Shown here: piece after piece, positions 4,278-61,826 of the stretch | Numbering within the stretch: position 1 is the stretch's first letter | Layout of the letters: every line of letters starts with the position of its first letter | Assembly (NCBI GenBank): GCA_947588005.1 | Contig: CANPYE010000002.1 | Span: forward strand, 3,733-67,732 | DNA: 64,000 nucleotides | Direction: 5' to 3' | Source: an uncultured Lachnospiraceae bacterium | GTDB taxonomy: Bacteria > Bacillota > Clostridia > Lachnospirales > Lachnospiraceae | Position numbers and translations under genes: made by a program | Notes under the pieces: model-generated | What the model was told of the DNA's origin: nothing | The model's database searches: none | Seen by the model: the letters and a program-made list of their open reading frames with translations, nothing else

Positions 4278-4341
4278 GCAATACCGTGAGTATATCCGCT
4301 ATGGTCGCTTCTCCTGCAGACTTGCTATACATCGTGCTCAT
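4270..4341 (-). pseudogene. Probable stub of a HEPN partner gene (23 codons, MSTMYSK...)
   Basis: Its ATG overlaps the MNT stop region as in coupled MNT-HEPN pairs; it runs into the spoIIID repeat. Confidence 0.35.
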
Positions 4342-4765: not shown

Positions 4766-4795
4766 AGCGGTTCCCTTATTTATCTCTGCATCTCC

Positions 4796-4835
4796 ATTTT
4801 GCTGCTACAGTATGCACCGTGGACTTGGAAATTCC
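4796..4835 (-). other. Third, diverged spoIIID-core junction (att-like site)
   Basis: Encodes GISKSTVHT; 21/25 identity to the spoIIID core and 16/20 identity to the junction at 6291-6310. Confidence 0.75.
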
Positions 4836-5056
4836 CTTACGTCAAACAGGCTTTTACTTCCTTTTTCAGCCCATGACCTGACAGTCTCCGCTCGGCTTGC
4901 TATTTACCAAAAATAATTCCGCTTTCTATATCCCAGTTGTAAAATGAAATATTATTTTGAAATTTTGGCAATCGGGTTGAAAAATCAAATATTTTACAAT
5001 ATAATGAGAATGATTTTATATATCGTTTTGCAGCAATGCTGAACGGAGGAAAATGA

Positions 5057-5263
5057 ATGCCTATCTCATACAATAGATTGTGGAAACTGATGATTGATAA
5101 AAGCATAAATAAAACGAAGCTGCGCTCACAGGCTGGCATTTCATCCAACGCTATGGCAAAGCTCGGCAAAAATGAGTCCGTGCAGGTGGAAGTGCTGGTG
5201 AAAATATGCAACTGCCTTGGATGCACGATGGACGACATTATGGAAATTCTGTCGGAAGAATAA
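5057..5263 (+). CDS. Cro/C1-type (XRE) HTH regulator
   Basis: ISYNRLWKLMIDK..AGISSNAMAKLGKNESV..KIC..L.C...DI; GGAGG RBS. Confidence 0.9.
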   Translation: MPISYNRLWKLMIDKSINKTKLRSQAGISSNAMAKLGKNESVQVEVLVKICNCLGCTMDDIMEILSEE

Positions 5264-5327
5264 GTTCGGTTTTGGATACTGAAACTATTATGATAGGATT
5301 GCTTAACTATAATCGGAGGTACTGACC

Positions 5328-5375
5328 GTGGCTGAAAAAAACAACGCCAACATCGGCTTTGAAAAACAAATTTAG
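5328..5375 (+). pseudogene. hsdM: N-terminal stub of type I R-M methyltransferase
   Basis: GGAGGT RBS then GTG-AEKNNANIGFEKQI-stop, resembling the HsdM N-terminus of Firmicutes. Confidence 0.65.
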
Positions 5376-5380
5376 CGGCT

Positions 5381-5520
5381 TAGTCGGGATTATTTGTCTT
5401 TGGGGTTCCACCGCCTAAAACTCGGATTAAAGCCGTGAACGGTTGCCGATCCGTTGAATCATCGTAGTATTTACTGAAAATAGCCTGCGCTTGCTGCTCT
5501 AAATTATTGTTTATTACAGA
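5381..5520 (-). pseudogene. hsdS: Internal fragment of type I R-M specificity subunit
   Basis: INNNLEQQAQAIF (conserved helix) followed by LGGGTPKTNNPD (TRD start). Confidence 0.7.
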
Positions 5521-5607
5521 ACATTTAATAAAATAATATAATAGGAAACGTGCCGTTTCTCAATGTAGTTAATGGACTAAAATGTTTGCCCCAAAGGAGA
5601 TGATTTT

Positions 5608-5910
5608 ATGAGTGATACTGTATTTACAATAGAAAAAATTGTAGCCTTGGTAAAACCGTTGGCTGAAAAATATCAAGTTCAACAGATTTATCTGTTTGGG
5701 TCATACGCAAGGGGAGAAGCCGGTGCAGATAGTGATTTGGATTTTCTGGTATATGGGGGAGAAAATTTTAAACTTACTAAAATTTTTTCTCTCGCAGAAG
5801 AATTACGAGAAGTGTTGAATAAAAAAGTGGATGTGTTTGAAATTCACGAGATTAATATGGACAGTGATTTTTATAAGACAATCATGAAAGAAAGGTTGCT
5901 GGTGGCATGA
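5608..5910 (+). CDS. MntA-like nucleotidyltransferase antitoxin
   Basis: LFGSYARGEAGADSDLD; overlaps the HEPN gene (ATGA). Confidence 0.9.
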   Translation: MSDTVFTIEKIVALVKPLAEKYQVQQIYLFGSYARGEAGADSDLDFLVYGGENFKLTKIFSLAEELREVLNKKVDVFEIHEINMDSDFYKTIMKERLLVA

Positions 5911-6254
5911 AATATTCGGATCAACAACGTGTTCAAAAGATATATGATAATGCAGTAAAGCTTCATAATTATATCAAGGAAAATCATGTCAGCAAAGAAG
6001 ATTTGCTAAAGGAATTATCCCTGCAATGGCTTGTCACAACACCGTTGTATAATATAGGTGAACATGTCTATAACTTGTCAAAGAATTATAAAGAGTCGCA
6101 TCATGAAATTCAATGGGCGATGATTTCCGGACTCAGACATCGCCTGGTACATGATTACGATGGGACGAATTGGAACATCATCGCCGATGTTGTTTTCGAT
6201 GAGTTGCCGATTTTAATAACGCAATTAAAAGAAATTCTGGATAAAGATCAATAA
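5907..6254 (+). CDS. HepT-like HEPN (DUF86) RNase toxin
   Basis: NIGE and W.MISGLRHRLVHDY (R-X4-H-X-Y). Confidence 0.9.
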   Translation: MKYSDQQRVQKIYDNAVKLHNYIKENHVSKEDLLKELSLQWLVTTPLYNIGEHVYNLSKNYKESHHEIQWAMISGLRHRLVHDYDGTNWNIIADVVFDELPILITQLKEILDKDQ

Positions 6255-40994: not shown

Positions 40995-42149
40995 CTAACC
41001 GCAAGTTTTTTCAAACTGCAGGACCTTCTCCGCAACCCTGGTTACATCTTCCTTTGTCAGATTGCTGCTGCATGGGAGGTTCACGATCCTGCCGTAATAC
41101 CACAACGCCTTTTCGATTTTATAGGCCTGCGCATTCTGATAAGGCTTAAGCGTATGGATCAGCTGCCATACCGGACGGCTCTGGATGCGGCAGGCGTCCA
41201 GGTGCTTTATCAGCCCATCCCGGTCTTTGGACAGGAAACTGTAGAACCAATGGTTGCTCCGGATCCCATCCCTGAAGGGCAGAAGGTTCAGACCCAGCCG
41301 CTGATATTCCTCATAATTCTCTGTCTTTGTCCGGATGAAGCCTTCCAATTGTTCCATCTGGGCCAGTCCCAAGGCGGCCTGCAGGTTCGTCATACGATAG
41401 TTATAGCCGATCTCTTCATGGACAAAATACACCACATCTTTTTTCGCCTGGGTAGACAGAAAGCGGCACCGTTCCACCAGGTCTCTGTCCCTGGAAACGA
41501 TCATTCCGCCACCGCCAGTGGTGATGATCTTATTTCCATTAAAGGAATATACACCGACATCCCCGATCGTTCCGGCATACCTGCCTGCGTACTCCCCAGC
41601 AAGGTAGCAGGTCCCCAGCGCTTCTGTGGCGTCCTCCACCACTTTCAGGTGGTACTGCCCTGCCACCTCCATGATCCGCTCCATATCGGCCATGTTGCCA
41701 AAGATATGGACAACCACAACTGCACGGATACGCCGTCCGCTGGTTTTATTGGTCAGGACACCATCCTTATAGTCGCATTCTTCCCTGCAGAAGGCGGCCA
41801 GCTTATCCGGATCCATAGTCAGCGAGTCATCACAATCCATAAAGACCGGTTCCGCCCCGGCATACCGTACCGGGTTGACTGCCGCAATGAATGTGAGGGT
41901 CGGTACGATGACTTCTTCCCCGGCGCTGATCCCCAAAGCCAACATAGCCAGGTGGAGACCGGCCGTCCCGCTCTGGCAGGCTGCTGCGGCAGGGACATGG
42001 ACATAATCCGCTATTTCATTTTCAAAGTCCTTAATATACGGCCCGCCGGTGGATACCCACTCGGTCTTTACCGCCTCTGTCACGTAATCCAATTCCTTAC
42101 CTTTCAGGTTCGGAACCGACAGCGGAATATATGTATCACTCATAGTCAT
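40995..42149 (-). CDS. legC: LegC-family aminotransferase
   Basis: WVST.G, SGTAGLH, EDATEALG, SFNGNKIITTGGGG and GYNYRM. Confidence 0.88.
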   Translation of the reverse strand: MTMSDTYIPLSVPNLKGKELDYVTEAVKTEWVSTGGPYIKDFENEIADYVHVPAAAACQSGTAGLHLAMLALGISAGEEVIVPTLTFIAAVNPVRYAGAEPVFMDCDDSLTMDPDKLAAFCREECDYKDGVLTNKTSGRRIRAVVVVHIFGNMADMERIMEVAGQYHLKVVEDATEALGTCYLAGEYAGRYAGTIGDVGVYSFNGNKIITTGGGGMIVSRDRDLVERCRFLSTQAKKDVVYFVHEEIGYNYRMTNLQAALGLAQMEQLEGFIRTKTENYEEYQRLGLNLLPFRDGIRSNHWFYSFLSKDRDGLIKHLDACRIQSRPVWQLIHTLKPYQNAQAYKIEKALWYYGRIVNLPCSSNLTKEDVTRVAEKVLQFEKTCG

Positions 42150-42244
42150 GTCCTCTTATCTGATCCGGGTAAACCGGATCAGTTATTTTACGTATTCTTC
42201 ACACTGTGCATCATAAGCTGTCGAGCAGAGCAGCCTGCACGCAT

Positions 42245-43222
42245 TTATAAGTTATATATGTCTGTTTTATACCTGTCCAGGTTGTCCCGCAGGAACTGCA
42301 CCGTCTCGGAAAGTCCTTCACTCAGGGTATATCCCGGTTTCCAGTCCGTCAGCCGGCGGATCTTCTCATTAGAGCCTAACAGCCGGTTCACCTCGCTTTT
42401 CTCCGGACGCAGCCTCTGTTCATCGCAGATAATCCGTGCCTGCGGATTGATCTGACGGATCAGTTCCCCCGCCAGCTCCCCGATGGAAATCTCCTGCTGG
42501 GTCGCTATATTGATTTCCTCCCCGATCGTTTTGTCGCTCTTGTATATCTCAATGAAACCGTTGGCCGTATCCTTCACGTAATTGAAATCCCGTGTCGGCG
42601 TCAATGCCCCCAGCCTGATCTCCGTCTTGCCTGCCAAAAGCTGCGTGATAATCGTCGGTATGACAGCTCTGGCGGACTGCCTGGGGCCGTAGGTGTTAAA
42701 CGGCCTGACAATGGTAACGGGCAGATTAAAGGAGCGGTAGAAAGACTCTGCCAATCTGTCCGCCCCGATCTTCGTCGCTGAATAGGGGGACTGTCCCTGG
42801 AAAGGATGTTTCTCATCAATGGGAACATATTTAGCAGTTCCGTAGACTTCCGATGTAGACGTAACCAAGACCCGCTCAAGTTCCAGTTCCCTGGCCGCCT
42901 GCAGGACATTTAAAGTGCCTTTAATGTTCGTGTCCACATAGGCGTCCGGGGAATGGTAACTGAACGGAATCGCGATCAGGGCTGCAAGATGAAAGACAGC
43001 GGAGCAGCCTTTCATGGCTTCTTTTACACCATACGGGTCGCGGATATCGCCTTGGAAGACCTCTACGTGATCCATAATGGAAGAAGGCAGGGTATCCAGC
43101 CACCCCCAGGTATTAAAGGAATTATAATAAACAAAAGCTTTGACTTCGTAGCCCTGTTTTACAAGTTCTTCTGTTAGATGGCTGCCGATGAAACCATCGG
43201 AGCCGGTGAGTAAGATTTTCAT
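42245..43222 (-). CDS. legB: NAD-dependent 4,6-dehydratase (LegB)
   Basis: GSDGFIGSHL, YNSFN.WGWLD, HLAALIAIPFSY, YSATK and RPFNTYGPRQS.RA. Confidence 0.9.
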   Translation of the reverse strand: MKILLTGSDGFIGSHLTEELVKQGYEVKAFVYYNSFNTWGWLDTLPSSIMDHVEVFQGDIRDPYGVKEAMKGCSAVFHLAALIAIPFSYHSPDAYVDTNIKGTLNVLQAARELELERVLVTSTSEVYGTAKYVPIDEKHPFQGQSPYSATKIGADRLAESFYRSFNLPVTIVRPFNTYGPRQSARAVIPTIITQLLAGKTEIRLGALTPTRDFNYVKDTANGFIEIYKSDKTIGEEINIATQQEISIGELAGELIRQINPQARIICDEQRLRPEKSEVNRLLGSNEKIRRLTDWKPGYTLSEGLSETVQFLRDNLDRYKTDIYNL

Positions 43223-43376
43223 TCTGATTTTATTAATGTCTAAATACCTGACATCTTTCCCTTTCTATATACTTTTTCATCACACAATTATTATGGTACG
43301 ATGATTTCTTCACACACTAATTTTAACAGGTTCTGGTTCCTCTCTAAAAGTTTATGATTCTTCATATCCTTGTGTT

Positions 43377-44897
43377 TCACCGGGAGCCTCTTATTTTTGC
43401 ACATAGTTCCATACATTCATCTACTCGCAGTACATATGTAATAACAATATATGCAATGCCACCAATCGAAATAGAAATAGCAAGACGCAATATATCCATA
43501 AGCAAACCATGTCTCACCCCAAAAACACATAATTTACTTACTGCAGACGAGATAATTGCAAACACTATTGAAGCTGCCATTATTATTCCAAACTTCCGGA
43601 TTCGCTCTTTCATAACTTTTTTAGAAATCACCCGGCACAATTCCCTAATGTACAAAGGGAATACCAAGATAGCTGCGACAGTTGTTGCAATGGCTAACCC
43701 CACGTGTTCATAATAATTCACTAAAATCAAGGACAAAACAATATTTATACTTATCTCAAATATACTATATTTTAAATTTATTGCTGTTCTTCCATCTGAA
43801 TACATAATACGGATTATTAACTCACGCCATACAAGCACAACTAGCGATAACATATACACTAAAAAGGGAAATACAGTATTCATTAACGAATCCTGATCAA
43901 AATTTCCCCGCATAAATATAATACGAACTATATCCTCCGAAAAAACACAACATATAAAACATATAGGAACTATGATAAATGTTATGATATCTAGATATTT
44001 AGCTATCAATTTCTGCACAGCTTCTTTATCACCACTTACTAGTTTTTCTGCTACTTTAGGATAAATAACAGTAGCAATTACCGTTGATGATGTCGTAACA
44101 AAAACTGCCCTCAATGTAAAAGAATAATTCAGTGCAGCCATTCTTCCTTCTGGCAAAAAAGAAGATAACATTTTATCTACAAATCCATTTATATCAACCA
44201 GTATATTACTAATAAATAGAGGAAACGCTAACTTAAATATTTCTTTAAGATATTCGTCATTCTTCTTATACTTTACAAATCTATATCCCCTTTTTCTTGA
44301 TAAGTTTCCAAGCCACCACAACTGAAATGGCCATGGCAAGACAACTCCTATAGGCAGAAAGACGTCTCCCGCCTTTGCGGCAATGATAATAAATGATGCT
44401 TGAATTATACTAACAAATAGGTTCGATATGTTGCTATTAATATAATCTCCATTGCAATTTAAATATGCCGTCAAAATTTGTACGGGTGTATTAAACAGCA
44501 CCGCCCATATAGTTATTGCTAAAAATTGCGATGTGATTTTTTTGGAATACAAATCGAATCCAAATGCACATATTGCTACAATCTGCTTACTTAAAATAAC
44601 AGTGAAACCAATACATATAACCGCAATAATTACACTAACTGCTAAAATATTATTAAGGAACTGATTCCGCTTCCCGTTTTCTTTTATCTCAAAGTATACC
44701 GGAGTGAACCCCGTTCCTAACGCCGGTAAAAAACCGAACAGAATAGACGGAATAGTAACGCTCATTAAATACACGTCAACTATACCGCTGGTTCCAAAGT
44801 AATATGCTAAAAGTAACTCTCGCAAAAAGCCAAAGCACTTTCCTAATAAAGATATACTTATTATAACTATAACAACTTTTTTAGTCGAAATCCTCAT
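43377..44897 (-). CDS. MurJ/MviN-like flippase (Wzx role)
   Basis: GFLRE..LAY.FG, VDK...S and RG.F; many TM segments. Confidence 0.8.
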   Translation of the reverse strand: MRISTKKVVIVIISISLLGKCFGFLRELLLAYYFGTSGIVDVYLMSVTIPSILFGFLPALGTGFTPVYFEIKENGKRNQFLNNILAVSVIIAVICIGFTVILSKQIVAICAFGFDLYSKKITSQFLAITIWAVLFNTPVQILTAYLNCNGDYINSNISNLFVSIIQASFIIIAAKAGDVFLPIGVVLPWPFQLWWLGNLSRKRGYRFVKYKKNDEYLKEIFKLAFPLFISNILVDINGFVDKMLSSFLPEGRMAALNYSFTLRAVFVTTSSTVIATVIYPKVAEKLVSGDKEAVQKLIAKYLDIITFIIVPICFICCVFSEDIVRIIFMRGNFDQDSLMNTVFPFLVYMLSLVVLVWRELIIRIMYSDGRTAINLKYSIFEISINIVLSLILVNYYEHVGLAIATTVAAILVFPLYIRELCRVISKKVMKERIRKFGIIMAASIVFAIISSAVSKLCVFGVRHGLLMDILRLAISISIGGIAYIVITYVLRVDECMELCAKIRGSR

Positions 44898-44915
44898 TCT
44901 CGCTCAGTATACCTC

Positions 44916-46400
44916 TTACGTACAGTAATACTCACGATAAAACTCTATTATTTTTTTTGCTAAGAGTATTTTATCTGCATCATTAATTACTGGAGAGCCA
45001 TTATCAATAAAGTTTTTCTCATGCATCATGCCTAACGGTACTACATATTTTTGTACCGCAGCGAGAAATATTTCTAGCTCTCTATAATCCATAACACGCT
45101 TATCGGATTGAACGGCAGCAATTGCTCTTTTACAATCCTCTGCTGTCCTTATTCTATACACTGTTGGATATTCTTCATAAAATGTAGCACCAAACAGAAT
45201 TACAGGTATTCCTCTAAAAATTGCCTCAAATCCGACCGTCCCTGTTACTGTTACCACAGCAAGACAATCATTTAACAATTCACCAGATGAGATTCTATGG
45301 TCAATCAATCGCACATTCCTGAGTTTTTTTATTTGCTTATAAAACTGTTCATTTCTACTCTCGTAAATACTTTCAAGCCTATTTTTTTGGATCCAGTATG
45401 CCGGATGTTCTTTAACATACAAATATAATCCATCAGGAAGATTCTCTGATATTAACCGTATTGCCATCAGTTGATCCGAATAAATTCCTCCTGCCGGTGT
45501 AGTAGTAGCTTCTGGCTGAAGATGTAAGCAGAACAAAAGAAAATCCTGTTGCTCATCCACATTTTCTTCTAAGCGTTCAACTTTTTTTAAAAATCGTGCT
45601 GTCTCATATTTTATTTTTATCAAATACAAAATCTTATTGCTAAGTATTTTTATTTCCTTTCTTTTTAAATACTTTTCGGCATGCTTTTTATAAAATGCAA
45701 TCCTGTTTACAATTGAACTTTTCTCATTAAAAAAAACCACCTTTTTATCTATACATGCATTGAGATCATACTGCTCAAAATATCTTCTCATTTCCGGAAT
45801 TAATTGAACTTCTTTACCCTCTCTGTTATATTCTTCCTTCAATGTGTTATATCTAGCAGAAATATTCAAGTCAAATAGATCGTGCGATGGTCTTAAAATG
45901 AAATTTATTTTTTCTCCTTTCGTAAATGGCATAACTCCTTGTATTATGGTAGGAATAGAGCGTGCTTTGCATATTGCATAGGGAACAAACTCATCTACAA
46001 CATGCGGCATTACATTGATAATCATCAAATTGATTCTGTGCTTAAGAATATAATCATTCCAGTATCTTAAAAAAATATAATAAAGCTCCTTAATATCTCT
46101 ATAATTACTACTATTTATGTAGCTCCTTCTCCACCGATTAATTATATCTAAACATATTTGCTCATAAGGTTTCATCAAATTGACTATATAGTCATCTAAC
46201 TCGTATTCTATAGATGCATCGGAATAATAACTCAATGGATTATTTATATCCAAGGGAATAATTAAATCATTTTTTACTTCTTCATTTTCTTCTGTTCGAA
46301 TATAAAAACACTTTTTTATTTTTAATTCTTTCATTAACAAATTAAAAGCTGGATTATTGACACCATAAAACCAACAAGTTAACAAATTAATCTCCTGCAT
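44916..46400 (-). CDS. KpsS/Capsule_synth-like glycosyltransferase, candidate nonulosonate transferase
   Basis: LH.QPE.TT, YVKEHP and TVTGTVGFEA...G.P. Confidence 0.7.
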   Translation of the reverse strand: MQEINLLTCWFYGVNNPAFNLLMKELKIKKCFYIRTEENEEVKNDLIIPLDINNPLSYYSDASIEYELDDYIVNLMKPYEQICLDIINRWRRSYINSSNYRDIKELYYIFLRYWNDYILKHRINLMIINVMPHVVDEFVPYAICKARSIPTIIQGVMPFTKGEKINFILRPSHDLFDLNISARYNTLKEEYNREGKEVQLIPEMRRYFEQYDLNACIDKKVVFFNEKSSIVNRIAFYKKHAEKYLKRKEIKILSNKILYLIKIKYETARFLKKVERLEENVDEQQDFLLFCLHLQPEATTTPAGGIYSDQLMAIRLISENLPDGLYLYVKEHPAYWIQKNRLESIYESRNEQFYKQIKKLRNVRLIDHRISSGELLNDCLAVVTVTGTVGFEAIFRGIPVILFGATFYEEYPTVYRIRTAEDCKRAIAAVQSDKRVMDYRELEIFLAAVQKYVVPLGMMHEKNFIDNGSPVINDADKILLAKKIIEFYREYYCT

Positions 46401-46478
46401 ATAAATTATCCCTCCCAAACAACTACTTTATTATTAGCCCACTCATTTATCTTAGTACCGCGTACATTACTACCAAAA

Positions 46479-47753
46479 TCATTCTTCTACTTTAATCCAA
46501 CCACTTCTTCCGAATATAGTACCAGCTATTAGTTCCATACACAGCATTGCAAAAATCATAAACATAAAATATCCAAAACCTAAAGCTATTGTTATCATGG
46601 ACATATATAAATTAATCATAACAGAAATCATTATTACGAGTTCTATAACTCCATAATTATTTTTGCTTGAATTCAAATATTTTAAAGTTATTCCTAACAT
46701 GATTCCTAACACAATACTTGCTACAAAAAAGCCAAAATAGCCATAATCATATAACAAAATCCCAGGTAATGCAATAAAATTTCCGCCTCCACCATCAAAA
46801 CTCGGCAGTTCCATCTTATATGAATTAAATAGTGGTGTCCTTTTTGCCAAAATAACCAATATCGATCTAAAAGATATGTTATGATTAATATCGGCAACTC
46901 CCGAATTTTCATTTATGACTGCTGCGATATAATATATACCATGAAGCATATACAATACTATCTCTGTCAACATATTAACCAAAGAGTTTCCTTGATAATT
47001 TGGCGAAACTCTTGCGCCGAGAACATCTGCTGTTAATTGTAAATATCTTAGATCATTCCCAGAAAATGCATATAAAATTGCTGTAACATATGATAACACT
47101 GCCGCCGCGGCCACAAACACCCAAAATGTTCTCCCGCGAAATTTAGGAAGAAAACTTTTCCCTAGATACTTTCTTAATATACAAACAACAAATGCAAATA
47201 CTATGGAAAGTAAAATATTGGATCTTCCACCATTGAGCATTGCCAAGCCGAATTGTCCACCAAATCCAGCTAATATAGCAAGTACCCTCTGTTTTTTATT
47301 AAGTACTTCCCAATGAAATATACCCATAAATAAAACGCAGTATGAAAACGGCACCATTAGATTCCCAAGTACACTGATAACACTTCCAGGAATTGCAGAC
47401 GCCCATTGATATCGAGCATTTCGAAACCCTCTGCTATAATCAATACCCCTAAAGAAAACTCTATCAATATATATAAATAAATTTCCTACTATAGTAGAAA
47501 AAGACGACCAATAAATAATAAAATTTAATTTCTTTCGGGAGATTTTTCTGGGAATCTTTCGTTTAATACTTTTTGCTTGACGATACCAAAAAACTGCTGT
47601 TGTAGAAACAGTAAAAACAAACACAATAATCAATATTATACTATCTAATTCATTTTCAAATTTAGATTGTATTGGAAGTAATTGTAATGAAATAAGAGAT
47701 ATTAGCCAAAGCATAATATAAATTTTCACTGCCAAAAAAATATCTTTTTTCAT
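46479..47753 (-). CDS. Putative Wzy polymerase
   Basis: About 10 TM segments, GGR motif, DYG..G; very AT-rich. Confidence 0.6.
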   Translation of the reverse strand: MKKDIFLAVKIYIMLWLISLISLQLLPIQSKFENELDSIILIIVFVFTVSTTAVFWYRQAKSIKRKIPRKISRKKLNFIIYWSSFSTIVGNLFIYIDRVFFRGIDYSRGFRNARYQWASAIPGSVISVLGNLMVPFSYCVLFMGIFHWEVLNKKQRVLAILAGFGGQFGLAMLNGGRSNILLSIVFAFVVCILRKYLGKSFLPKFRGRTFWVFVAAAAVLSYVTAILYAFSGNDLRYLQLTADVLGARVSPNYQGNSLVNMLTEIVLYMLHGIYYIAAVINENSGVADINHNISFRSILVILAKRTPLFNSYKMELPSFDGGGGNFIALPGILLYDYGYFGFFVASIVLGIMLGITLKYLNSSKNNYGVIELVIMISVMINLYMSMITIALGFGYFMFMIFAMLCMELIAGTIFGRSGWIKVEE

Positions 47754-47980
47754 ATTCTCCCCCTCACGTAATTCTTTCATCCTATTAATAAAAATCAAGG
47801 GATCAGGTATATAAACACTATATATAAATACTTTCTTGGGACATGTTCCACAATTGAATATCTAACATTGCCTTTATCAAATTTATGCTTGATATAGCAC
47901 CGCTGGACTTACTGCTGCTTCTTCTTCTCAAATTTACAAATATGAAATCACTATATAACTAAAGCTCAAAAAAATTGAAT

Positions 47981-48424
47981 TCACACATCTTTATTCACTG
48001 TAATAGCCAACTGTATCCCTTTATTCCTTTTCACCCGAACAGCATGCGACATACATAAGCCAGACGGCTTATCATCATTAATCAAAATTCTTTCTCCAAC
48101 TGGCAGATTAAACAGTATAGCATCATATTTAATACCATTATCTTCTAAGAATTGTTCTGTCAGAGTGCGATATTTCTCCTCCCTCGAAGTTAGCAAGACA
48201 ACATAGTCTTCCTTCGGTAAACTATGTAGAAAATTTATGGATTCTTTTATAGGGATATCCTTCTCACTCCTAAAATACCCGTTATGGATTGCTATCGTTC
48301 CATCAATATCAATTAACCACGTATGCTTCAGGGAAGAAATCTCTAGTTTTTGTTGATCTGTCATGGAAGTATCCTTTATATCATTCAAAAAATCTCTTTT
48401 CATCTTATAGCGTCTTTTTCTCAT
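47981..48424 (-). CDS. Small HAD-superfamily phosphatase
   Basis: DIDGT, LTSR and RILINDDKPSG. Confidence 0.8.
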   Translation of the reverse strand: MRKRRYKMKRDFLNDIKDTSMTDQQKLEISSLKHTWLIDIDGTIAIHNGYFRSEKDIPIKESINFLHSLPKEDYVVLLTSREEKYRTLTEQFLEDNGIKYDAILFNLPVGERILINDDKPSGLCMSHAVRVKRNKGIQLAITVNKDV

Positions 48425-48439
48425 GTATATTTTATGTCA

Positions 48440-50569
48440 TTATTCCCTCAACTTTTCCCCAATTGCTCCGCCCGGATGATTCGGTTTAAAATCTCGCTCC
48501 AGTTCAAGCCCCAGCCGCCGTGAGAGTTCAATCGCCACAGTCTGCAGAACAATCAGATTCAACGTGGTTGAATTGTTCGGCATGATGTTCCATTGATCCC
48601 CCTCATGCTCCATATGGATGATTAATCGATGCTCCAACATATCTGCAAGTGTACTATGTTCTTCAAAACTCAACAGCCAAATCTGGATGCCCTCCCTTTT
48701 TTGCAAAAGCTCTGCCAGATAGACAGATTCTGCCGTATTGCCACTCTTAGTTAAAAGAATGACCAAATCTCCGGACTTTACCATTCCCATATCGCCATGA
48801 ACTGCTGAGTTCGTATGCAAAAAACCAGCATCCAGGCCAAGTGATAGCATAGTTCCAACAAACTTATCGCAGATAGGCACATTCTTACCTAGGCCGGAAG
48901 CCACAAGCCGATGCCCAGACCGCAGCGTTATCTCACAGGCTGAAATCAATTCTTCCAGACTTGTCCGCGAAATCGACTTTAATGCATCTTCAATAATCCT
49001 TTCATTTTTTTCAAAATAAGAAAAAGCGCTGTCATCGGACAGGGCTTCTTCCAGATAGTATAGTCCATTATAGAACGCTCCGCAGATGGAATCGTAGTCT
49101 TCCCATGTATAAGTCGTAAGTGACAACCATATCAATGCATGTAGTATGTGCATCTGCGCCGGGATCACTTCACCTCCAAGCATCCGGAAAAATTCCGTTT
49201 CCATGTCTTCCCAGCCATTGGATTCAATCTCCAGCCATACACCGTCCTCGCTAATATCTAGCCGGAAATGTTTCAGATTAAACCGGTCATAGTTCCCCAC
49301 AATGGAATAATAGAGTTTTGCCCAATCATAAGAAGCATCGCCGTAAAGCTCTGTGTTCCCAAAATACCCTCTCGGATCAATCAGCACAGGTTCTCCAGCT
49401 TCCGTAAGCATCAGGTTACTGAATGTGCAGTCACCATGGATCAGCAAAAATTTTTTTGGAAGATACCTCATGACAATTGACTCCACTTCTTCCCTATGAA
49501 AGAAGATGTTCCTGCATTCGCGTCCATTGACAATTACTGTGGTATCCTTGGCAAAAGGCACCAACTCCTTCACCTTCTCTAATCTTGCGAATGTCTTTCC
49601 AATATAAGCTTCATAGAAACTATCCTTATCTACAGGAATAGAATCTATCTTATGAACCTGACGCAGACATTTTATGACCTGTGACAATATATCTTTTTTC
49701 TCCGATAGCATCAGACTATCATATTCATATATATTCTTTCCCTTTACAACTTCCATACAGAGAGGATTATAGCCATATATAACTGGTATGTTTATGATAT
49801 CCTTACTTTCAATCGTGACATCTACATGCGATATAGTCTCCTGTATCTTCCTATACCACTCCACCTCACGCCCAGCTAGGGTTCGTCCCTGCTCATTAAT
49901 GGCTTCTTTATAAAATTTGCCATCCTTTATCCAAGTGCGGTTGAATGGCCTACAACGCCGTTTAGGTATTTTATCCCATTCTGAGAACAATCCATACTCA
50001 TGGGTTCTTGAAAGGATGAGTTCCTTAAACGCGATCTGCTGTTCGCCCAACCAACGCACAAACTCCCCATCGGCCGGAATGTCTGCAATCATATCTTTAT
50101 TACAAAAAACAAACAAACCTGCAACGCCTCGTTTCGTGCTTCTCTCCTCTACAAATTGCTTGTTTTCGTATTTCCATCTGCAGGGGAAATCCCCGGACAA
50201 TCCGACCAAATTAACATCTGTCTCTGGAATCACAAAATCAATCGGTAAGACTAGGTCACACCATATGAGCAAGAAAGACTCCTTTGGAGGGAGCATGGCA
50301 ACGGCATCCTGCAAACCAGCACACGTGCCATTATGCCCCCCCGCATTCACTATCTTGTAATCTACTGTAGCAAATGCCTTTAGATACTGATCCAACACAT
50401 CATATTTATAGTCTCCGATGATGATAAACTTTTTATCCGGGTATTTGCGAAACAGATGGAACAGCATCGGAAGATTATCCACCGGCACCAAAGCCTTGGG
50501 CTTATTTTTCGTCAACTGTTCCATGCGAGTCCCTTTTCCCCCCGCTTGAACGATGATATAGTCGAACAT
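48440..50569 (-). CDS. Trifunctional nucleotidyltransferase / APH-choline-kinase-like / KpsF-type SIS isomerase
   Basis: AGGKGTR..LT.NKPK; HGDCTFSN..IDPRG..YDWAK; GLGK, HGDMGMV, KSG.T.E, P.NST and HPGGAIG. Confidence 0.82.
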   Translation of the reverse strand: MFDYIIVQAGGKGTRMEQLTKNKPKALVPVDNLPMLFHLFRKYPDKKFIIIGDYKYDVLDQYLKAFATVDYKIVNAGGHNGTCAGLQDAVAMLPPKESFLLIWCDLVLPIDFVIPETDVNLVGLSGDFPCRWKYENKQFVEERSTKRGVAGLFVFCNKDMIADIPADGEFVRWLGEQQIAFKELILSRTHEYGLFSEWDKIPKRRCRPFNRTWIKDGKFYKEAINEQGRTLAGREVEWYRKIQETISHVDVTIESKDIINIPVIYGYNPLCMEVVKGKNIYEYDSLMLSEKKDILSQVIKCLRQVHKIDSIPVDKDSFYEAYIGKTFARLEKVKELVPFAKDTTVIVNGRECRNIFFHREEVESIVMRYLPKKFLLIHGDCTFSNLMLTEAGEPVLIDPRGYFGNTELYGDASYDWAKLYYSIVGNYDRFNLKHFRLDISEDGVWLEIESNGWEDMETEFFRMLGGEVIPAQMHILHALIWLSLTTYTWEDYDSICGAFYNGLYYLEEALSDDSAFSYFEKNERIIEDALKSISRTSLEELISACEITLRSGHRLVASGLGKNVPICDKFVGTMLSLGLDAGFLHTNSAVHGDMGMVKSGDLVILLTKSGNTAESVYLAELLQKREGIQIWLLSFEEHSTLADMLEHRLIIHMEHEGDQWNIMPNNSTTLNLIVLQTVAIELSRRLGLELERDFKPNHPGGAIGEKLRE

Positions 50570-50604
50570 AGATATTTCTACTCCTTTTATCGCAATTTTT
50601 TTAG

Positions 50605-51516
50605 CTATACAGTTTCTAATATCTGTTCTAATAATTTCCCTTCGTTACCATCCATACTTTGAAACTCTCTCAAATTAGCGATATGGGGTATCTTATCTAT
50701 TGTATAAGCTTTATAAAAATCGATTTCCTTATGATAGGGATAAAGCACAATCAAGTTACATTCCTGCTTTACTAAAAGATCGCACATCCCACTTCTCACA
50801 GAAATTATATACCTAAACAACGAAGCCGCATCAAATATGTCAACAATAGAAAAAGAACTCAGATCTGTTATTCCAGACTTTACTTTTTCTAGACTGTCTA
50901 AAATTCCTGCATCATTTACATAAACATTATATTTTTGTGACAGATTATCAATCAGTGCTACCCAAAACTCTTTTTTAAATGATAGGATAGAATTACAAAC
51001 AGGCATCACAAGAACCGAATTTTCTTTAACTTTGGCAAGCTTTTGAGATTCTCTCGTTAATCCGATCTGTCGGGGAGAATGAATACCTGAATCAAGCCCA
51101 AAAATATACTTTGTATAAACTTCTTCAAATGTATTATACTTCGATATTTTATCGTATTTTTTACTCAAAGTCTTGGGATGTAATAGTTTATACTTATAAG
51201 AAGGCTTTATTTTATTAAGAATCAATAAATAATAATAGAATGCCTTCCTATCCTCCTTTTTATAATATACCACATCTGCTTTACTGACATCGCACAGTTC
51301 AACTATGTCTTTGTGGTCTTCCTGAATAAAAAGTGTCAAATGTTTTATATGCTCCTTGGCAATATAAGAATCGATAAATAGAGCAACGTACAAAGAATCC
51401 CCAATCCCCCCACATGAGAATACAATATCCCCCTGTGGAATAGGAGTTCTTTTAATCGCATTCATTCCATCAAAAAATAACTTGATTTTTCTAAATTGAT
51501 TTATCAAATGATCCAC
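50605..51516 (-). CDS. GT9 (heptosyltransferase)-like glycosyltransferase
   Basis: GGIGD, P......K.FW..L and ISVRSG.CDL. Confidence 0.5.
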   Translation of the reverse strand: MDHLINQFRKIKLFFDGMNAIKRTPIPQGDIVFSCGGIGDSLYVALFIDSYIAKEHIKHLTLFIQEDHKDIVELCDVSKADVVYYKKEDRKAFYYYLLILNKIKPSYKYKLLHPKTLSKKYDKISKYNTFEEVYTKYIFGLDSGIHSPRQIGLTRESQKLAKVKENSVLVMPVCNSILSFKKEFWVALIDNLSQKYNVYVNDAGILDSLEKVKSGITDLSSFSIVDIFDAASLFRYIISVRSGMCDLLVKQECNLIVLYPYHKEIDFYKAYTIDKIPHIANLREFQSMDGNEGKLLEQILETV

Positions 51517-52657
51517 AATTTTTTCCCCACACCATCTTATCCACAATCCCCGTATAACTTTGGATCAGTCTTACCACTTTCATACTCACATTCTCATCCG
51601 TATAATCTGGCACCTCGACCGCCAAGTCACCATTATCCTTCATCCGTACTGCCATGTCCACGGCCTGCAGTACCTGCTTTGTAGTGATACTCCCCAGAAT
51701 GAAGTTTCCTTTATCCAAAGCTTCCGGCCGCTCCGTCGAAGTCCTCACACACACCGCCGCAAACGGCATCCCCTTGGCGTTGAAATATGCTGATTCCTCC
51801 GGCAGCGTCCCGCTATCGGACACCACACAGAAGGCGTTCAGCTGCAGATGGTTATAATCCGTGAAGCTAAATGGCTGCAGGCTCCTCACTAATGGATGGA
51901 ACTGGAAATGCCTCGCCTCAATGAACTTCCTGCTCCTCGGATGGGTGCTGTAGATCACAGGCTTCTGATAGGTCTCCGCCATGGCATTTACCGCATTCAT
52001 CAGGGCCATAAAGCTCTGCTCATTGTCGATATTTTCCTCCCGGTGGGCGGACAGAAGAATATAGCCGTCCTTTTCAAATCCCAGACGCTCCAGCACATCA
52101 CTTTCAAGGATCCGGTCCAGATGGGCGCTTAAGACCTCCGCCATCGGGGATCCGGTCACATAGGTCCTCTCCTTCGGCCGTCCTTCCGCGTTCAGGTACC
52201 TCCTGGCATGTTCGCTGTAGCACAGGTTCACATCCGCGATATGGTCCACGATCCTCCGGTTGGTTTCCTCCGGCAGGTTCTCGTCAAAACAGCGGTTTCC
52301 GGCTTCCATATGGAAGATCGGGATCTTGAGGCGCTTGGCCGGGATCGCAGACAATGCCGAATTGGTGTCTCCCAGGATCAGCACCGCATCCGGCTTCCAG
52401 GAAAGCATCTCCTGATAACTTCTCGCGATAATGTTGCCGATCGTCTCACCCAGGTCTTTCCCTACTGCGTCCAGATAGACATCCGGGTTTCTCAGACCCA
52501 GGTCCTCAAAGAAGATCTGGTTCAGCGTGTAGTCATAGTTCTGCCCAGTATGGACCAGTCTGTGGTCAAAGTATGTATCACATTTCTTAATGACTTCCGA
52601 CAGCCGTATGATCTCCGGACGTGTGCCCAGGACTGTCATTAGCTTCAATTTCTCCAT
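51491..52657 (-). CDS. fnlC: Non-hydrolysing UDP-sugar 2-epimerase (FnlC/Cap5G)
   Basis: GTRPEIIRLS, HTGQNYD, HMEAGNRCFD..PEE.NR and SDSGT. Confidence 0.9.
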   Translation of the reverse strand: MEKLKLMTVLGTRPEIIRLSEVIKKCDTYFDHRLVHTGQNYDYTLNQIFFEDLGLRNPDVYLDAVGKDLGETIGNIIARSYQEMLSWKPDAVLILGDTNSALSAIPAKRLKIPIFHMEAGNRCFDENLPEETNRRIVDHIADVNLCYSEHARRYLNAEGRPKERTYVTGSPMAEVLSAHLDRILESDVLERLGFEKDGYILLSAHREENIDNEQSFMALMNAVNAMAETYQKPVIYSTHPRSRKFIEARHFQFHPLVRSLQPFSFTDYNHLQLNAFCVVSDSGTLPEESAYFNAKGMPFAAVCVRTSTERPEALDKGNFILGSITTKQVLQAVDMAVRMKDNGDLAVEVPDYTDENVSMKVVRLIQSYTGIVDKMVWGKNCGSFDKSI

Positions 52658-53843: not shown

Positions 53844-54886
53844 CCGCGCAGTTCCTCCCATTCCGCGATCTCATTGCGGATATATTCCAGTTGAAAAAGT
53901 TTTCCTTTCACCTGTTCCACATCCAGAAGATCCGTGTTGTTGGAATTAAACTCGCTTAAGGTATTCCTCGCACTGTTCCCGGCGATAAAATATTTGTCGT
54001 AATTCAGATCCCTTTTGTCCGCAGGCACCCGGAAGAAATTCCCCATATCAATAGCGTGGGAACATTCCTCATTGGTCAGCAGGGTCTCATACATCTTTTC
54101 CCCATGACGGATGCCTATAACTTTCACTTCATTGTCCGCATGAAACAGTTCCTTTACTGCCTGTGTCAGCGTTCCGATCGTGCAGGCGGGCGCTTTCTGC
54201 ACCATGATATCCCCGGATTCCGCGTTCTGGAACGCGAATACCACTAGTTCCACCGCTTCCTCCAGGCTCATGATGAACCGGGTCATCGCAGGCTCCGTGA
54301 CAGTCAGCGGTTTTCCCTCCTTGATCTGTTTGATAAACAGCGGTACAACGGACCCTCTGGAGCAAAGGACATTACCGTAGCGTGTACAGCAAATGGCTGT
54401 TTTCTCCGGCGAAACCGTCCTGGATTTGGCCACGATCACCTTCTCCATCATGGCCTTGCTGGTCCCCATGGCATTGACCGGATAAGCCGCCTTATCGGTA
54501 GACAAGCAGATGACCTTTTTTACGCCTTCCTCAATGGCTGCCGTCAGGACATTCTCTGTTCCTAATACATTCGTACGGACTGCCTCGATGGGAAAAAATT
54601 CACAGGACGGCACCTGCTTCAATGCAGCCGCATGAAAGATAAAATCCACACCATGCATGGCATTCCGGATACTGTTAACGTCACGGACATCCCCTATGTA
54701 AAACTTGATCTTATCACTCAGCTCCGGATATTTCTGCTGGTACAGATGGCGCATATCATCCTGTTTCAGTTCATCACGAGAAAAGATACGGATCTCTTTC
54801 AGTTCTGAATCCAAAAAACGGTTCAATACTGCATTTCCAAAAGACCCCGTACCTCCGGTGATCATAAGTGTCTTTTTTTCAAACAT
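53840..54886 (-). CDS. fnlA: UDP-GlcNAc 4,6-dehydratase/5-epimerase (FnlA/Cap5E)
   Basis: GGTGSFG, SRDE.KQ, HAAALKQVPSCEF.P and STDKA.YP. Confidence 0.93.
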   Translation of the reverse strand: MFEKKTLMITGGTGSFGNAVLNRFLDSELKEIRIFSRDELKQDDMRHLYQQKYPELSDKIKFYIGDVRDVNSIRNAMHGVDFIFHAAALKQVPSCEFFPIEAVRTNVLGTENVLTAAIEEGVKKVICLSTDKAAYPVNAMGTSKAMMEKVIVAKSRTVSPEKTAICCTRYGNVLCSRGSVVPLFIKQIKEGKPLTVTEPAMTRFIMSLEEAVELVVFAFQNAESGDIMVQKAPACTIGTLTQAVKELFHADNEVKVIGIRHGEKMYETLLTNEECSHAIDMGNFFRVPADKRDLNYDKYFIAGNSARNTLSEFNSNNTDLLDVEQVKGKLFQLEYIRNEIAEWEELRG

Positions 54887-56114
54887 TCTTACTGCCTCTT
54901 TCCCATGCTTCATATGCGTTGATTATTTTTTGATACGCTTTTTCTGTCGTAAAATGCTCCGACATATATCGCTTGCCATTCATACCTTTCTTTATAAATA
55001 CTGATGCATCCTCAATAACAGTCCTAACAATATCTACGTATTTATCTGAATCATTACTTTCACACCACCAGCCAAAGTCCTGATCTATAATCAATCTCCC
55101 TAAATCCGTATTTATATCCGTTGCCGCAAGCACAGGCATGCCCAAATTCATATAATCCAACAACCTGGAGGGAAAATTCGGTATTGTAAACCGATGGTCT
55201 AAAAAAATAAGAGCTACATCACTAGCCCTCAATAGGTTTTTATAATCGCCGTATGGAAGTCCCTCAATCACAGTCAGATTTTCTGCTTTGGTACGCTCCT
55301 TATATTCTTTTATCCTATGAAATTCTGTCCCGGATCCACACATAACAAAATGTACTTTCTCTATCCTTTGTACTTTATCAAGAACCTGAAGAATAAACCC
55401 AATACCCTGTGGTTTTCCAAAATTACCGCCATATGTAAATATAGTCTTATTCTTTGGCAGGTCATATTTTTCTCTCAAAGATTCCTTATTAACTGCTTCT
55501 AACGGAATCACATCAACCGTATTCGGACATATCTCTATCTTATCTCTCGAAATATCCCTGTTGTATCTCAAAATAAATCTGGCATTTGCTGGAGACATAC
55601 AGCCAATCCTGTCTGAATAACTATATAATTGACGTTCCTTTCTTCGGAAATATTTGTACAATATTCCACTCAGTCCTGCCGTTCTCATCATACCAAGATC
55701 CACGGCATTCTGAGGGAATATATCTTTTAACATAAGATAAGTAAACACATCATCCCGCCGTTTCATATGTCTGACAACAGGAGCCAGAGTTATAGGAGGA
55801 GTAGAATACAATATAATATCAAAACTTTCGTCTCCAAAATATTTATTGATAGCATTTCTATATTTCTGGCCGATCAGCAGGGTCGAAATGCCTTTTTCGA
55901 TAATATTTGTCTTTGTGATATTGCCAGTCCTGACATAGAGTATTCTCACGTTATCCACATTTTCCAGATGTGTTTTCTTTCTTTCTCTCCGTTCATTCTG
56001 GCACACAATACACACATCATGCCCTTTATCACGAAAATAACGAAGCAGATCCGAGTATATCCCATGATCTTCAATATTCCTTATCTTTCCAATCGTTAGA
56101 AATATGATCTTCAT
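54879..56114 (-). CDS. GT4 glycosyltransferase (WbuB-like L-FucNAc transferase)
   Basis: [25 protein letters not shown] and PNFPSR.L.YM. Confidence 0.85.
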
Positions 56115-56737
56115 CTTTTGGGGTCTCCCATAAACTCTCCCATCGTCGCCTCTCCAACTGCGCTGATCCCTTCCCTTTTCAGCACAGCCAATACCGTCAA
56201 AAAGATAATCTTCCAATCCCCCAGAAACGTAACATGATCCACATACTTCACATCCCAGTTAAATTTCTCATCCCAACTGATTGCATTACGCCCATGCACC
56301 TGTGCCAGTCCCGTGATTCCCGGCCGCACCTCATGTCTTCTGGCCTGATGTTTACTGTACCGAGGCAGGTATTCAACCAGCAGCGGCCTGGGCCCTACCA
56401 CACTCATATCCCCCTTCAGGACATTTAACAGTTCCGGAAGTTCATCCAAAGACGTCGACCGCAGCTTCTTTCCAAACCCGGTAAGCCGTACCTCATCTGG
56501 AAGCAGGTTCCCGTCTTTATCCCTTTGGCTTGTCATGGACCGGAACTTATAAAGTTTGAAAATTTTTCCATCTTTCCCAGGTCTATCCTGTGTGAACAGT
56601 ACAGGACTGCCCAGCTTTTTCCACACAAGCAGCGCCGTCACCAGCATCACTGGTGACAACAGAATCATAGCCAGAAACGCACACAGGAAATCCTGCGGCC
56701 GTTTTATGTATCTCTCATAGATGCCCTGTCTGTGCAT
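56111..56737 (-). CDS. Initiating phosphoglycosyl transferase (PglC/EpsL-like)
   Basis: [28 protein letters not shown] and RPGITG.AQ. Confidence 0.92.
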
Positions 56738-61067: not shown

Positions 61068-61826
61068 TCACGACGCCCTGCATACCACCCCCACCGGCAC
61101 CTCCATCGACATATCCTGGCCAAACATTCGTATGCCGATGTCCACGGTAGTCTTCTTCACTTTCCACACGATGCCGCTTAAGCCTTCCAGCGTTCCCGCG
61201 ATGACCGTCACCTGGTCGCCAACCGTCAGGTCGTGCTCCGCGACCGGCTGTTCGATCTGATAATGCTTCGGCAGCGTAAGCGGCGCCTCGACTTTGCCGT
61301 AGGCCAGCTCCTGCCGGATGTCTTCCTGCAAAATGATTCCCAGCACCACCTGCTTGATCTCGCCCAGCAGTCGTACATTGACCAGCGCGTAGCGCTTCTT
61401 GTACTGGTATCTGGCCACCTGATCCTGCCGCAACTTGAGCGGGCCGGTGACGCGCCAGACATGACCGCGGTTATCTTTCTCTACATAAGAGAGACGGACA
61501 ATGTGCGCGTCGTCCAGCATTTCCGTAAAGAAATCTTCCTCGCCTTTTTCCAGAGGAATGAATGTGAACATGCCGTCGGACATAAGCTTCGTCATGGCCG
61601 GAACCAGTTTCAGCCGTTGGAAAAGCTTCTCAGGCATCTCAGTCAGAATGAATACATACCCCGGAAAGAGCCGCTCCACATGGACCATACTCTGCTGCTG
61701 CTTTCGCCAGACCCTCTCGTAATACGCCACAAAACAATCGGTATATGTCTCTCTCGGCAATATTTTCCTGACCATGCGAACCACTTCTTCCTCATGGCCG
61801 GTCAGTGTCTGAATCACATACCACAT
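61068..61826 (-). CDS. loaP: NusG-paralog antiterminator (LoaP-like) with an extra KOW domain
   Basis: MWYVIQ..TG.EE and LFPGYVF NGN domain; two KOW-like modules. Confidence 0.85.
   Translation of the reverse strand: MWYVIQTLTGHEEEVVRMVRKILPRETYTDCFVAYYERVWRKQQQSMVHVERLFPGYVFILTEMPEKLFQRLKLVPAMTKLMSDGMFTFIPLEKGEEDFFTEMLDDAHIVRLSYVEKDNRGHVWRVTGPLKLRQDQVARYQYKKRYALVNVRLLGEIKQVVLGIILQEDIRQELAYGKVEAPLTLPKHYQIEQPVAEHDLTVGDQVTVIAGTLEGLSGIVWKVKKTTVDIGIRMFGQDMSMEVPVGVVCRAS

Follow-up and report, generated by a model that had tools for sequence, protein, structure and literature searches.

D-Arabinofuranose (D-Araf) of bacterial envelopes has so far been tied to a lipid-linked route, the decaprenyl-phosphoryl-arabinose (DPA) pathway of mycobacteria and their relatives. 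In this pathway of the Corynebacteriales, phosphoribosyl pyrophosphate (PRPP) is converted via decaprenylphosphoryl-5-phosphoribose (DPPR) and decaprenylphosphoryl ribose (DPR) to DPA, the arabinose arising by epimerisation of the ribosyl lipid, and the sugar is transferred by GT-C enzymes outside the membrane. Here, we describe a cassette of three genes, P0003, P0001 and P0002, in a stretch of 64,000 nucleotides from an uncultured Lachnospiraceae bacterium (assembly GCA_947588005.1, contig CANPYE010000002.1; the whole stretch is referred to as the window). Judged from sequence comparison, this cassette is likely to make nucleotide-activated D-Araf and to place it in the surface polysaccharide of the surrounding operon.

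The closest described system is found in phages. The soluble route to UDP-D-Araf was established by phage work of 2025-2026, of which PMC13326640 gives the following account: a phage arabinose-5-phosphate (arabinose-5-P) isomerase makes D-arabinofuranose 5-phosphate (Araf-5-P) from ribulose 5-phosphate (Ru5P). AfhE of E. coli phage HY126, which acts both as D-arabinose-5-P kinase and as pyrophosphorylase for UDP-D-arabinose, converts Araf-5-P to Araf-1,5-bisphosphate (Araf-1,5-P2) and later Araf-1-P to UDP-Araf (He et al., Nat Chem Biol 2026, as cited in PMC13326640), whereas the conversion of Araf-1,5-P2 to Araf-1-P is carried out by the Mg-dependent phosphatase AfhF. In RB69, gp52:53, gp51 and gp55 are equated with AfhE, AfhF and the isomerase, respectively (Lee et al., NAR 2026, PMC13326640); the counterparts in Acinetobacter phage DLP3 are gp82, gp81 and gp83, and the DNA of both phages bears D-Araf on 5-hydroxycytosine, as seen by nuclear magnetic resonance. 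The same paper names 1xpj as the structure closest in fold to the phage HADs, and MurU and LicC as structural matches of the phage nucleotidyltransferase (NTase) domains. The first-pass annotation of the window had proposed, as a new pathway, the succession from Ru5P through arabinose-5-P, arabinose-1,5-bisphosphate and arabinose-1-phosphate to NDP-D-Araf (NDP, nucleoside diphosphate). This succession matches the phage route step for step, although it is drawn throughout from homology at 24-35% identity; its novelty, however, did not stand, the route having been published for phage DNA arabinosylation (PMC13326640, 2025-2026). Most likely, the module is a bacterial, isomerase-fused and glycan-directed counterpart of the known phage pathway. 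What appears to be undescribed is this cellular, glycan-directed version, the isomerase fusion and the link to a large GT9-like family without annotation (GT, glycosyltransferase); literature searches for a bacterial NDP-arabinose pathway turned up only the phage papers.

The three genes lie on the minus strand and are transcribed in the order P0003, P0001, P0002, with intergenic gaps of 35 bp between P0003 and P0001 and of 15 bp between P0001 and P0002. P0003 (50605-51546) encodes 313 residues from a TTG start, P0001 (48440-50569) a protein of 709 residues with three domains, and P0002 (47981-48424) a protein of 147 residues. The open reading frames (ORFs) were thus placed as in the first-pass annotation, except that P0003 extends to 51546 and not to 51516, which is an in-frame start 10 codons later.

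P0001 begins with a sugar-1-phosphate NTase domain (49970-50569, residues ~1-200), the equivalent of the N-terminal half of AfhE and of RB69 gp53, continues with an APH-fold kinase domain (49031-49969, residues ~201-513), the equivalent of the C-terminal half of AfhE and of RB69 gp52, and closes with a single SIS domain without CBS (48440-48997 including the stop codon, residues 525-709), the equivalent of RB69 gp55, all on the minus strand. Pfam assigns NTP_transf_3 to residues 6-108 (E 2.7e-8), APH to 271-424 (E 8.6e-7) and SIS to 549-679 (E 8.2e-12); NTP_transferase also matches the N-terminal domain, and no CBS domain is found in P0001 by Pfam, the protein ending 5 residues past HPGGAIG. 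The motifs GLGK (559-562), HGD.G (591-595), P664/S667/T668 and HPGGAIG (698-704) are invariant in 13 family members, which bears out the initial description of a fusion of NTP transferase, APH and SIS domains with KdsD/KpsF hallmarks. In the NCBIfam search, residues 525-707 match KpsF/GutQ (7e-26), KdsD (2.7e-25) and GutQ (5.7e-24) with 84.7-91.4 bits; the KdsD/KpsF/GutQ family cut-off is not reached, because the full-length cut-offs of 203.7-505 bits are set for proteins with the CBS pair that is missing here. No GmhA model is among the 25 NCBIfam families listed for P0001. The best solved relatives of the SIS domain by sequence search of the PDB are 5uqi (E 5.2e-21), 3etn (3.9e-16) and 2xhz (9.3e-13). 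Residues K562, H591, E614, E656 and H698, which we take to correspond to K59, H88, E111, E152 and H193 of KdsD, are invariant in the alignment of the P0001 family. By its sequence, the SIS domain is of the arabinose-5-P isomerase type and resembles the CBS-less subgroup represented by 5uqi and 3etn.

These CBS-less isomerases, c3406 of E. coli CFT073 (5uqi), the arabinose-5-P isomerase of Bacteroides fragilis (3etn) and a likewise CBS-less enzyme of Clostridium tetani, share with the SIS domain of P0001 the absence of CBS and the motifs GxGK, HGDxG, SGxTxE and HPGG. They differ in that they are stand-alone proteins, whereas the domain here is fused to downstream enzymes, which gives arabinose-5-P a destination.

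In the remaining two domains of P0001, catalytic motifs are conserved between phages and bacteria: G11, R15, K25 and D105 of the NTase as well as HGDxxFSN (378-385), IDPRGxFG (397-404), Y414-D415, K418 and D428 of the kinase are invariant in the alignment. For the kinase domain, we infer an activity as arabinose-5-P 1-kinase. Further matches of the NTase domain are HddC, the heptose-1-phosphate guanylyltransferase (E 6.1e-8), and MurU (E 4e-5) in NCBIfam, LicC (1jyk, E 0.0085) in the PDB and PDB proteins of the 6-deoxy-manno-heptose pathway; a structure of AfhE itself was not found in the PDB by sequence search.

The homology to the phage genes extends over essentially the whole fusion. A tblastn search with P0001 against 50,697 phage records returned 373 records with a match, of which 253 cover at least 80% of the protein at one place, as two pieces on adjacent NTase-kinase and isomerase genes (~27% identity, E ~1e-23 to 1e-28); they include RB69-like phages and phages of Yersinia, Serratia, Acinetobacter and similar hosts. 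The NTase-kinase and isomerase genes of T-even-like phages align to 99% of the length of P0001. In pairwise BLASTP against RB69, gp53 matches residues 6-155 (E 2.4e-6), gp52 residues 221-552 (27% identity, E 8.8e-26) and gp55 residues 554-708 (34%, E 2.3e-20). At the level of profiles, residues 5-513 match positions 4-505 of the 559 of phrog_4098 (E 4.3e-58), and residues 552-709 match phrog_5670, 'arabinose 5-phosphate isomerase' (E 4.2e-30); RB69 gp52 and gp53 fall into phrog_4098, gp55 into phrog_5670 and gp51 into phrog_1238, and the homologues of phage phiR1-RT (g053 in phrog_4098) are distributed likewise. The closest phage relative of P0001 is encoded by cyanophage S-SRM01 with 33% identity (E 3e-83). 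In this cyanophage, the module of SIS, NTase-kinase and mini-HAD (NC_070963.1 195088-197500; L009:5998-8410) lies amid glycosyltransferase, epimerase and methyltransferase genes and not beside a thymidylate-synthase homologue, which suggests glycan rather than DNA use in a phage.

The bacterial cassette and the phage Afh pathway thus have in common the four activities (here predicted), the families phrog_4098, phrog_5670 and phrog_1238, the fusion of NTase and kinase in the same order, the conserved catalytic motifs and the deduced steps through a 1,5-bisphosphate. The differences concern the isomerase, which is a C-terminal fusion here and the product of a separate upstream gene in the phages, the setting, which is here a monoderm's polysaccharide operon of the Wzx type and in the phages DNA modification, and the linked transferase, which is GT9-like here and GT4-like in the phages, at an overall identity of 24-35%.

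P0002 is a small HAD protein. Its Pfam match is weak (HAD_PNKP, E 4.6e-4, under the cut-off); D39/D41/G42/T43 (DxDGT), T79, N116/D117 and K119 are nevertheless invariant in 29 homologues, in agreement with the earlier proposal of a HAD phosphatase beside the fusion. P0002 matches phrog_1238 (E 2e-10), the PHROG that holds RB69 gp51 (1.9e-42) and phiR1-RT g052 (2.8e-41), and is 44% identical to the phosphatase that adjoins the module in cyanophage S-SRM01. The AlphaFold model (predicted local distance difference test score, pLDDT, 86.6) has a low-confidence stretch of ~24 residues at its start, so that the true start may be the internal Met21. Foldseek ranks 1xpj second for this model (E 5.5e-4) and 9iqw seventh (E 6.9e-3, template modelling (TM) score 0.46-0.55), the PDB title of the latter being D-arabinose 1,5-diphosphate phosphatase AfhF of phage HY126; GmhB (2gmw) is also among the Foldseek matches, and a profile search of the PDB with the HAD alignment returns PNKP phosphatases and 1xpj, weakly. 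We infer P0002 to be a capless mini-HAD that acts as arabinose-1,5-bisphosphate 5-phosphatase, equivalent to AfhF and RB69 gp51. The phage HADs of the AfhF type (RB69 gp51, L091:3709-4095; phiR1-RT g052, L010:6350-6715; phrog_1238) are labelled 'phosphoheptose isomerase' in RefSeq and PHROGs, which, given PDB entry 9iqw and PMC13326640, looks like a propagated misannotation.

P0003 is without match in Pfam (E <= 0.1), NCBIfam and PHROG. In particular, Glyco_transf_9 (PF01075) is matched neither by P0003 at E <= 0.1 nor by the further family members P0124, P0133, P0127 and P0150 at E <= 0.01. The AlphaFold model (pLDDT 91.9, predicted TM score 0.89) shows a GT-B fold, for which the top nine Foldseek matches are WaaC, WaaF and a Veillonella GT9 (E 6.9e-8 to 2e-6, TM ~0.5-0.56), followed by TibC; the neighbours in the ESM Atlas are unnamed Bacillota clusters and then PF01075 GT9 clusters, the nearest named ones (score 0.96). 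The initial designation as GT9-like is thus true of the modelled fold only: the resemblance to WaaC and WaaF holds, but the sequence lacks PF01075. An earlier BLASTP comparison of neighbours from three loci had yielded no relative of P0003; the family emerged from clustering of 969 ORFs neighbouring the module, and a hidden Markov model (HMM) built from 60 such neighbours scores P0003 itself at E 6.9e-50. A profile search of 1.84 billion representatives assigns 2,877 clusters to this family at E <= 1e-10, and in the members scanned the GT domain is without Pfam match. P0003 is the best candidate for a D-arabinofuranosyltransferase that would use the predicted product of the module. In one database protein of 914 residues, P0199, a P0003-family domain is, by the database gene call, fused with an AfhE-like region 36% identical to residues 5-510 of P0001. 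In this AfhE-like region, the glycine-rich loop of the NTase and the HGD and IDPRG motifs of the kinase are degenerate, so that it may be a donor-binding pseudoenzyme domain.

The same genome carries a second, divergent gene of the P0003 family (contig C30, 24501-25538; L102:8502-9539), which scores 203 bits against the family profile and ends another polysaccharide locus (L102:1237-8236) with FnlA/B/C-like genes, three GT4 genes and an EpsG-type polymerase. The FnlA/B/C-like proteins of this locus are 54-69% identical to those of the window. No second NTase-kinase was found, and the last ~180 bases before the contig end encode nothing P0001-like; the two loci may hence draw on one donor-synthesis module.

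The module is widespread. Its three-domain architecture occurs in more than 3,000 database proteins, and at least 560 loci, counted with one genome per species, carry it in fused or split form; the carriers include Lachnospiraceae, Oscillospiraceae, Selenomonadaceae, Butyrivibrio, Enterocloster, Schwartzia and one metagenome-assembled genome (MAG) of Methanomassiliicoccaceae. Cultured carriers among them are Schwartzia succinivorans DSM 10502, Otoolea muris DSM 111138, Enterocloster lavalensis KCTC 15153, Butyrivibrio sp. Su6 and LC3010, and Lachnospiraceae bacterium 10-1. Of the 77 species loci in which an NTase-kinase was called, 36 have the isomerase as part of the same protein and 37 as a separate gene of ~197 codons directly downstream; the fusion thereby serves as Rosetta-stone evidence that the parts belong to one pathway. 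Linkage to further genes was counted in 80 loci: in 65 of them a P0002-type HAD gene follows on the same strand, mostly within 100 bp, and in 51 a P0003-family gene is found, in most cases directly beside the module. The next commonest neighbour families, an epimerase, Wzx and a GT2, reach 16-17 of the 80 loci, and the recurrent neighbours in this set include neither an Fnl nor an Epimerase_2 cluster. The module is sporadic, as it occurs in 3 of 300 sampled genomes of the class, and the P0003 family is found in exactly these three NTase-kinase-bearing genomes, one of which belongs to another family; this co-occurrence is suggestive and not a statistic, because the genomes are few and partly related.

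Two occurrences stand apart. On a 25-kb contig of the Methanomassiliicoccaceae archaeon MAG (JAEEJP010000090.1), a fused homologue with 48% identity (4110-6221) is followed by a P0002-type HAD gene and a P0003-family gene, which points to transfer into a gut methanogen or else to erroneous binning of the contig. In one lineage (L007:8001-10597 and L008), the fused enzyme and the HAD form an isolated pair, flanked by a methyltransferase/UvrC block and a 3D-domain protein; no polysaccharide locus surrounds them, and no transferase lies nearby.

In the window, genes are co-directional throughout from ~61.8 kb down to 34.3 kb. The first of the operon genes listed encodes a NusG/LoaP-like protein (61068-61826), which is followed by PglF-, PglE-, PglD- and PglC-like genes, a GT4 gene (54879-56216), FnlA-, FnlB- and FnlC-like genes and the cassette; downstream of P0002 come an unannotated protein of 439 residues, a PF05159 protein, a MurJ/Wzx-type flippase and a legionaminic-acid-type gene set. 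The PglF/E/D/C-like genes are, by predicted function, those of an initiating sugar of the N,N'-diacetylbacillosamine (diNAcBac) type, and the FnlA/B/C-like genes those of the N-acetyl-L-fucosamine (L-FucNAc) type. The 439-residue membrane protein (46479-47798, minus strand), which is without Pfam match, may be a Wzy-type polymerase. The PF05159 (KpsC/KpsS-type capsule synthesis) protein of 500 residues (44916-46418, minus strand), which lies 2 kb from the cassette and adjoins the legionaminic-acid genes, may be a nonulosonic-acid transferase in this monoderm, in which genes for 3-deoxy-D-manno-oct-2-ulosonic acid (Kdo) were not found. Gene content and order place the cassette in that part of a Wzx-dependent polysaccharide operon which forms its serotype-specific core. 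The guanine-plus-cytosine (GC) content is 30-41% over 44-52 kb, compared to ~57% in the surrounding region; the low-GC segment (42000-52000) comprises the genes of the flippase and the PF05159 protein as well as the putative polymerase and the arabinose cassette, with flanks at ~57%, and this drop is consistent with a horizontally exchanged serotype-specific core. In the gene scan, which covered 36-64 kb of the window, neither a 5-hydroxycytosine synthase nor a DNA arabinosyltransferase nor a thymidylate-synthase homologue was found.

The host assembly (3.05 Mb in 232 contigs) is a MAG with 81% completeness. It contains Spo0A (317 bits, cut-off 200), and LpxC was not found in this 81%-complete assembly, which together indicate a monoderm, spore-former-type relative of Clostridium. 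The window holds neither kdsA nor kdsB; in the assembly, the sole KdsA-like match, on another contig, reaches 120.8 bits where the cut-off is 314, and the sole KdsB-like match 24.3 bits where it is 155.2. With no true KdsA or KdsB found in this 81%-complete assembly, arabinose-5-P would have no Kdo pathway to feed, in line with the first-pass annotation, which had judged Kdo supply unlikely from the window; a role of the isomerase in Kdo supply was rejected on these findings.

From the observed domain content, intact catalytic motifs, phage homology, gene linkage and co-occurrence, each enzymatic step of the cassette can be deduced in the following manner: The SIS domain would isomerise Ru5P to Araf-5-P, which the APH-fold kinase would phosphorylate at C1 to Araf-1,5-bisphosphate. 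The small HAD would then strip the 5-phosphate, leaving Araf-1-P, and the N-terminal NTase would join the latter with a nucleoside triphosphate (uridine triphosphate in the phage system) to form NDP-D-Araf. A pyranose-furanose mutase would presumably not be needed in this scheme, because the 5-phosphate would lock the furanose ring until the anomeric phosphate is placed. Finally, the GT9-like P0003 may add Araf to an undecaprenyl-linked repeat unit, which would be started on diNAcBac and also contain L-FucNAc and a legionaminic-acid-type sugar.

Several points weigh against this scheme. We know of no D-Araf glycan structure from any carrier of the module. The phage enzymes are 24-35% identical to those of the window, and substrate or nucleotide specificity may differ. 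The relation of P0002 to RB69 gp51 is a distant one, as pairwise BLASTP gives no match and hhalign a weak one (27.7% probability), and it is carried by the PHROG profile and the fold. A P0002-type HAD was not found by tblastn and six-frame HMM search in the flanks of 15 of the 80 loci, some of which are cut by contig ends while others have different small ORFs, and a P0003-type gene was not found in the flanks of 29. The absence of kdsA and kdsB is limited by the 81% completeness of the MAG. Finally, the Afh biochemistry is taken second-hand from PMC13326640, the likeness to AfhE is drawn through RB69 gp52:53, and the known phage arabinosyltransferases are GT4-like, not GT9-like (PMC13326640).

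Some of these points also speak for alternative readings. The low identity to the phage enzymes, the similarity of P0003 to heptosyltransferases and the NTase matches to HddC (E 6.1e-8) and to PDB proteins of the 6-deoxy-manno-heptose pathway are in favour of the same enzyme logic acting on another sugar, the SIS and kinase domains having drifted to a different ketose-phosphate and the product being another NDP-pentose, an NDP-hexose or an NDP-heptose. We consider such a drift improbable: the SIS domain matches KpsF/KdsD/GutQ with E-values of 1e-24 to 1e-26, with no GmhA model listed, the solved structures nearest to it are those of the arabinose-5-P isomerases 5uqi, 3etn and 2xhz, the residues taken as equivalents of K59, H88, E111, E152 and H193 of KdsD are invariant in the family, and the kinase motifs are common to the phage family down to a block of eight residues. 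A different question is whether NDP-D-Araf, once made, is used by P0003. The donor might instead serve the GT4 (54879-56216), the PF05159 protein or the 439-residue membrane protein, and P0003 might move another sugar such as L-FucNAc; both P0003-family genes of this genome directly follow FnlA/B/C sets, the phage arabinosyltransferases described in PMC13326640 are GT4-like, and 29 of the 80 loci lack a P0003-family gene in their flanks. This division of labour is possible but rather doubtful, as the P0003 family occurs in exactly the module-bearing genomes of the 300 sampled, P0199 naturally joins both families, and the recurrent neighbours of the module comprise no Fnl or Epimerase_2 cluster, the next families reaching 16-17 of 80 loci.

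Very little, finally, speaks for an isomerase that feeds Kdo synthesis or has a regulatory role of the kind suggested for other stand-alone isomerases, next to an NTase-kinase that activates a phospho-alcohol such as choline in the manner of LicC/LicA, and we regard this combination as highly improbable. KpsF-type isomerases do occur in Gram-negative capsule loci, a PF05159 (KpsC/KpsS-type) protein is encoded 2 kb away, and LicC (1jyk) is a weak PDB match of the NTase (E 0.0085). However, the end-to-end match of the NTase-kinase to the AfhE PHROG (E 4.3e-58) is far above that to LicC, 36 species loci encode the isomerase in one chain with the NTase-kinase and 37 as its direct neighbour, and the assembly contains Spo0A, with no true KdsA, KdsB or LpxC found. 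Synthesis of NDP-D-Araf for a surface polysaccharide is thus the preferred reading of the cassette.

Viewed from its architecture, the cassette also invites comparison with pathways for other activated sugars and alcohols. The NDP-heptose pathways (GmhA; HldE or HddA plus HddC; GmhB; WaaC, WaaF and TibC) likewise combine an isomerase, an anomeric kinase, a HAD for the distal phosphate, an NTase and a GT-B transferase, and the models of P0002 and P0003 resemble GmhB (2gmw) and WaaC/WaaF, respectively. The cassette differs from them in its SIS domain of the KpsF/KdsD type, its kinase of the APH rather than the PfkB or GHMP fold, the lack of PF01075 and the predicted five-carbon substrate. Membership in a heptose pathway or in GT9 was rejected, as no GmhA-type SIS is listed, the kinase has the APH fold and PF01075 is unmatched. 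In the AmgK/MurU and LicA/LicC systems, a kinase of the APH/choline-kinase fold and an enzyme of the NTP_transferase fold act on MurNAc/GlcNAc and choline, respectively; the two-step activation by a kinase-NTase pair is shared with P0001, whereas these systems are without isomerase or distal-phosphate phosphatase and their sequence similarity to P0001 is marginal, which led to the rejection of a LicC/LicA-type activation. With the DPA route, the cassette would share only the outcome, a D-arabinofuranosyl donor for cell-envelope glycans: there are no homologous enzymes, and the donor proposed here is a soluble nucleotide sugar for cytoplasmic GT-B enzymes.

On a broader scale, a soluble NDP-D-Araf donor may be widespread in the surface glycans of gut and rumen Bacillota (at least 560 species genomes), the P0003 family (~2,900 clusters at 50% identity) may constitute new GT9-related D-arabinofuranosyltransferases, and the phage DNA-arabinosylation pathway may have been recruited from such a cellular glycan pathway; for this wider proposal, we see the arguments as evenly balanced. 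If hundreds of bacteria of gut and rumen use the cassette as proposed, commensal surface polysaccharides probably contain D-Araf as a common, overlooked component. The CBS-less arabinose-5-P isomerases of Kdo-free bacteria would then gain a physiological role, and the large unannotated transferase family a testable donor, since UDP-Araf, which was also used in PMC13326640, can be purchased. The phage genes for DNA arabinosylation would likewise be given a plausible origin in cells, and glycans of this kind would be relevant to phage receptors and to the immune recognition of commensals.

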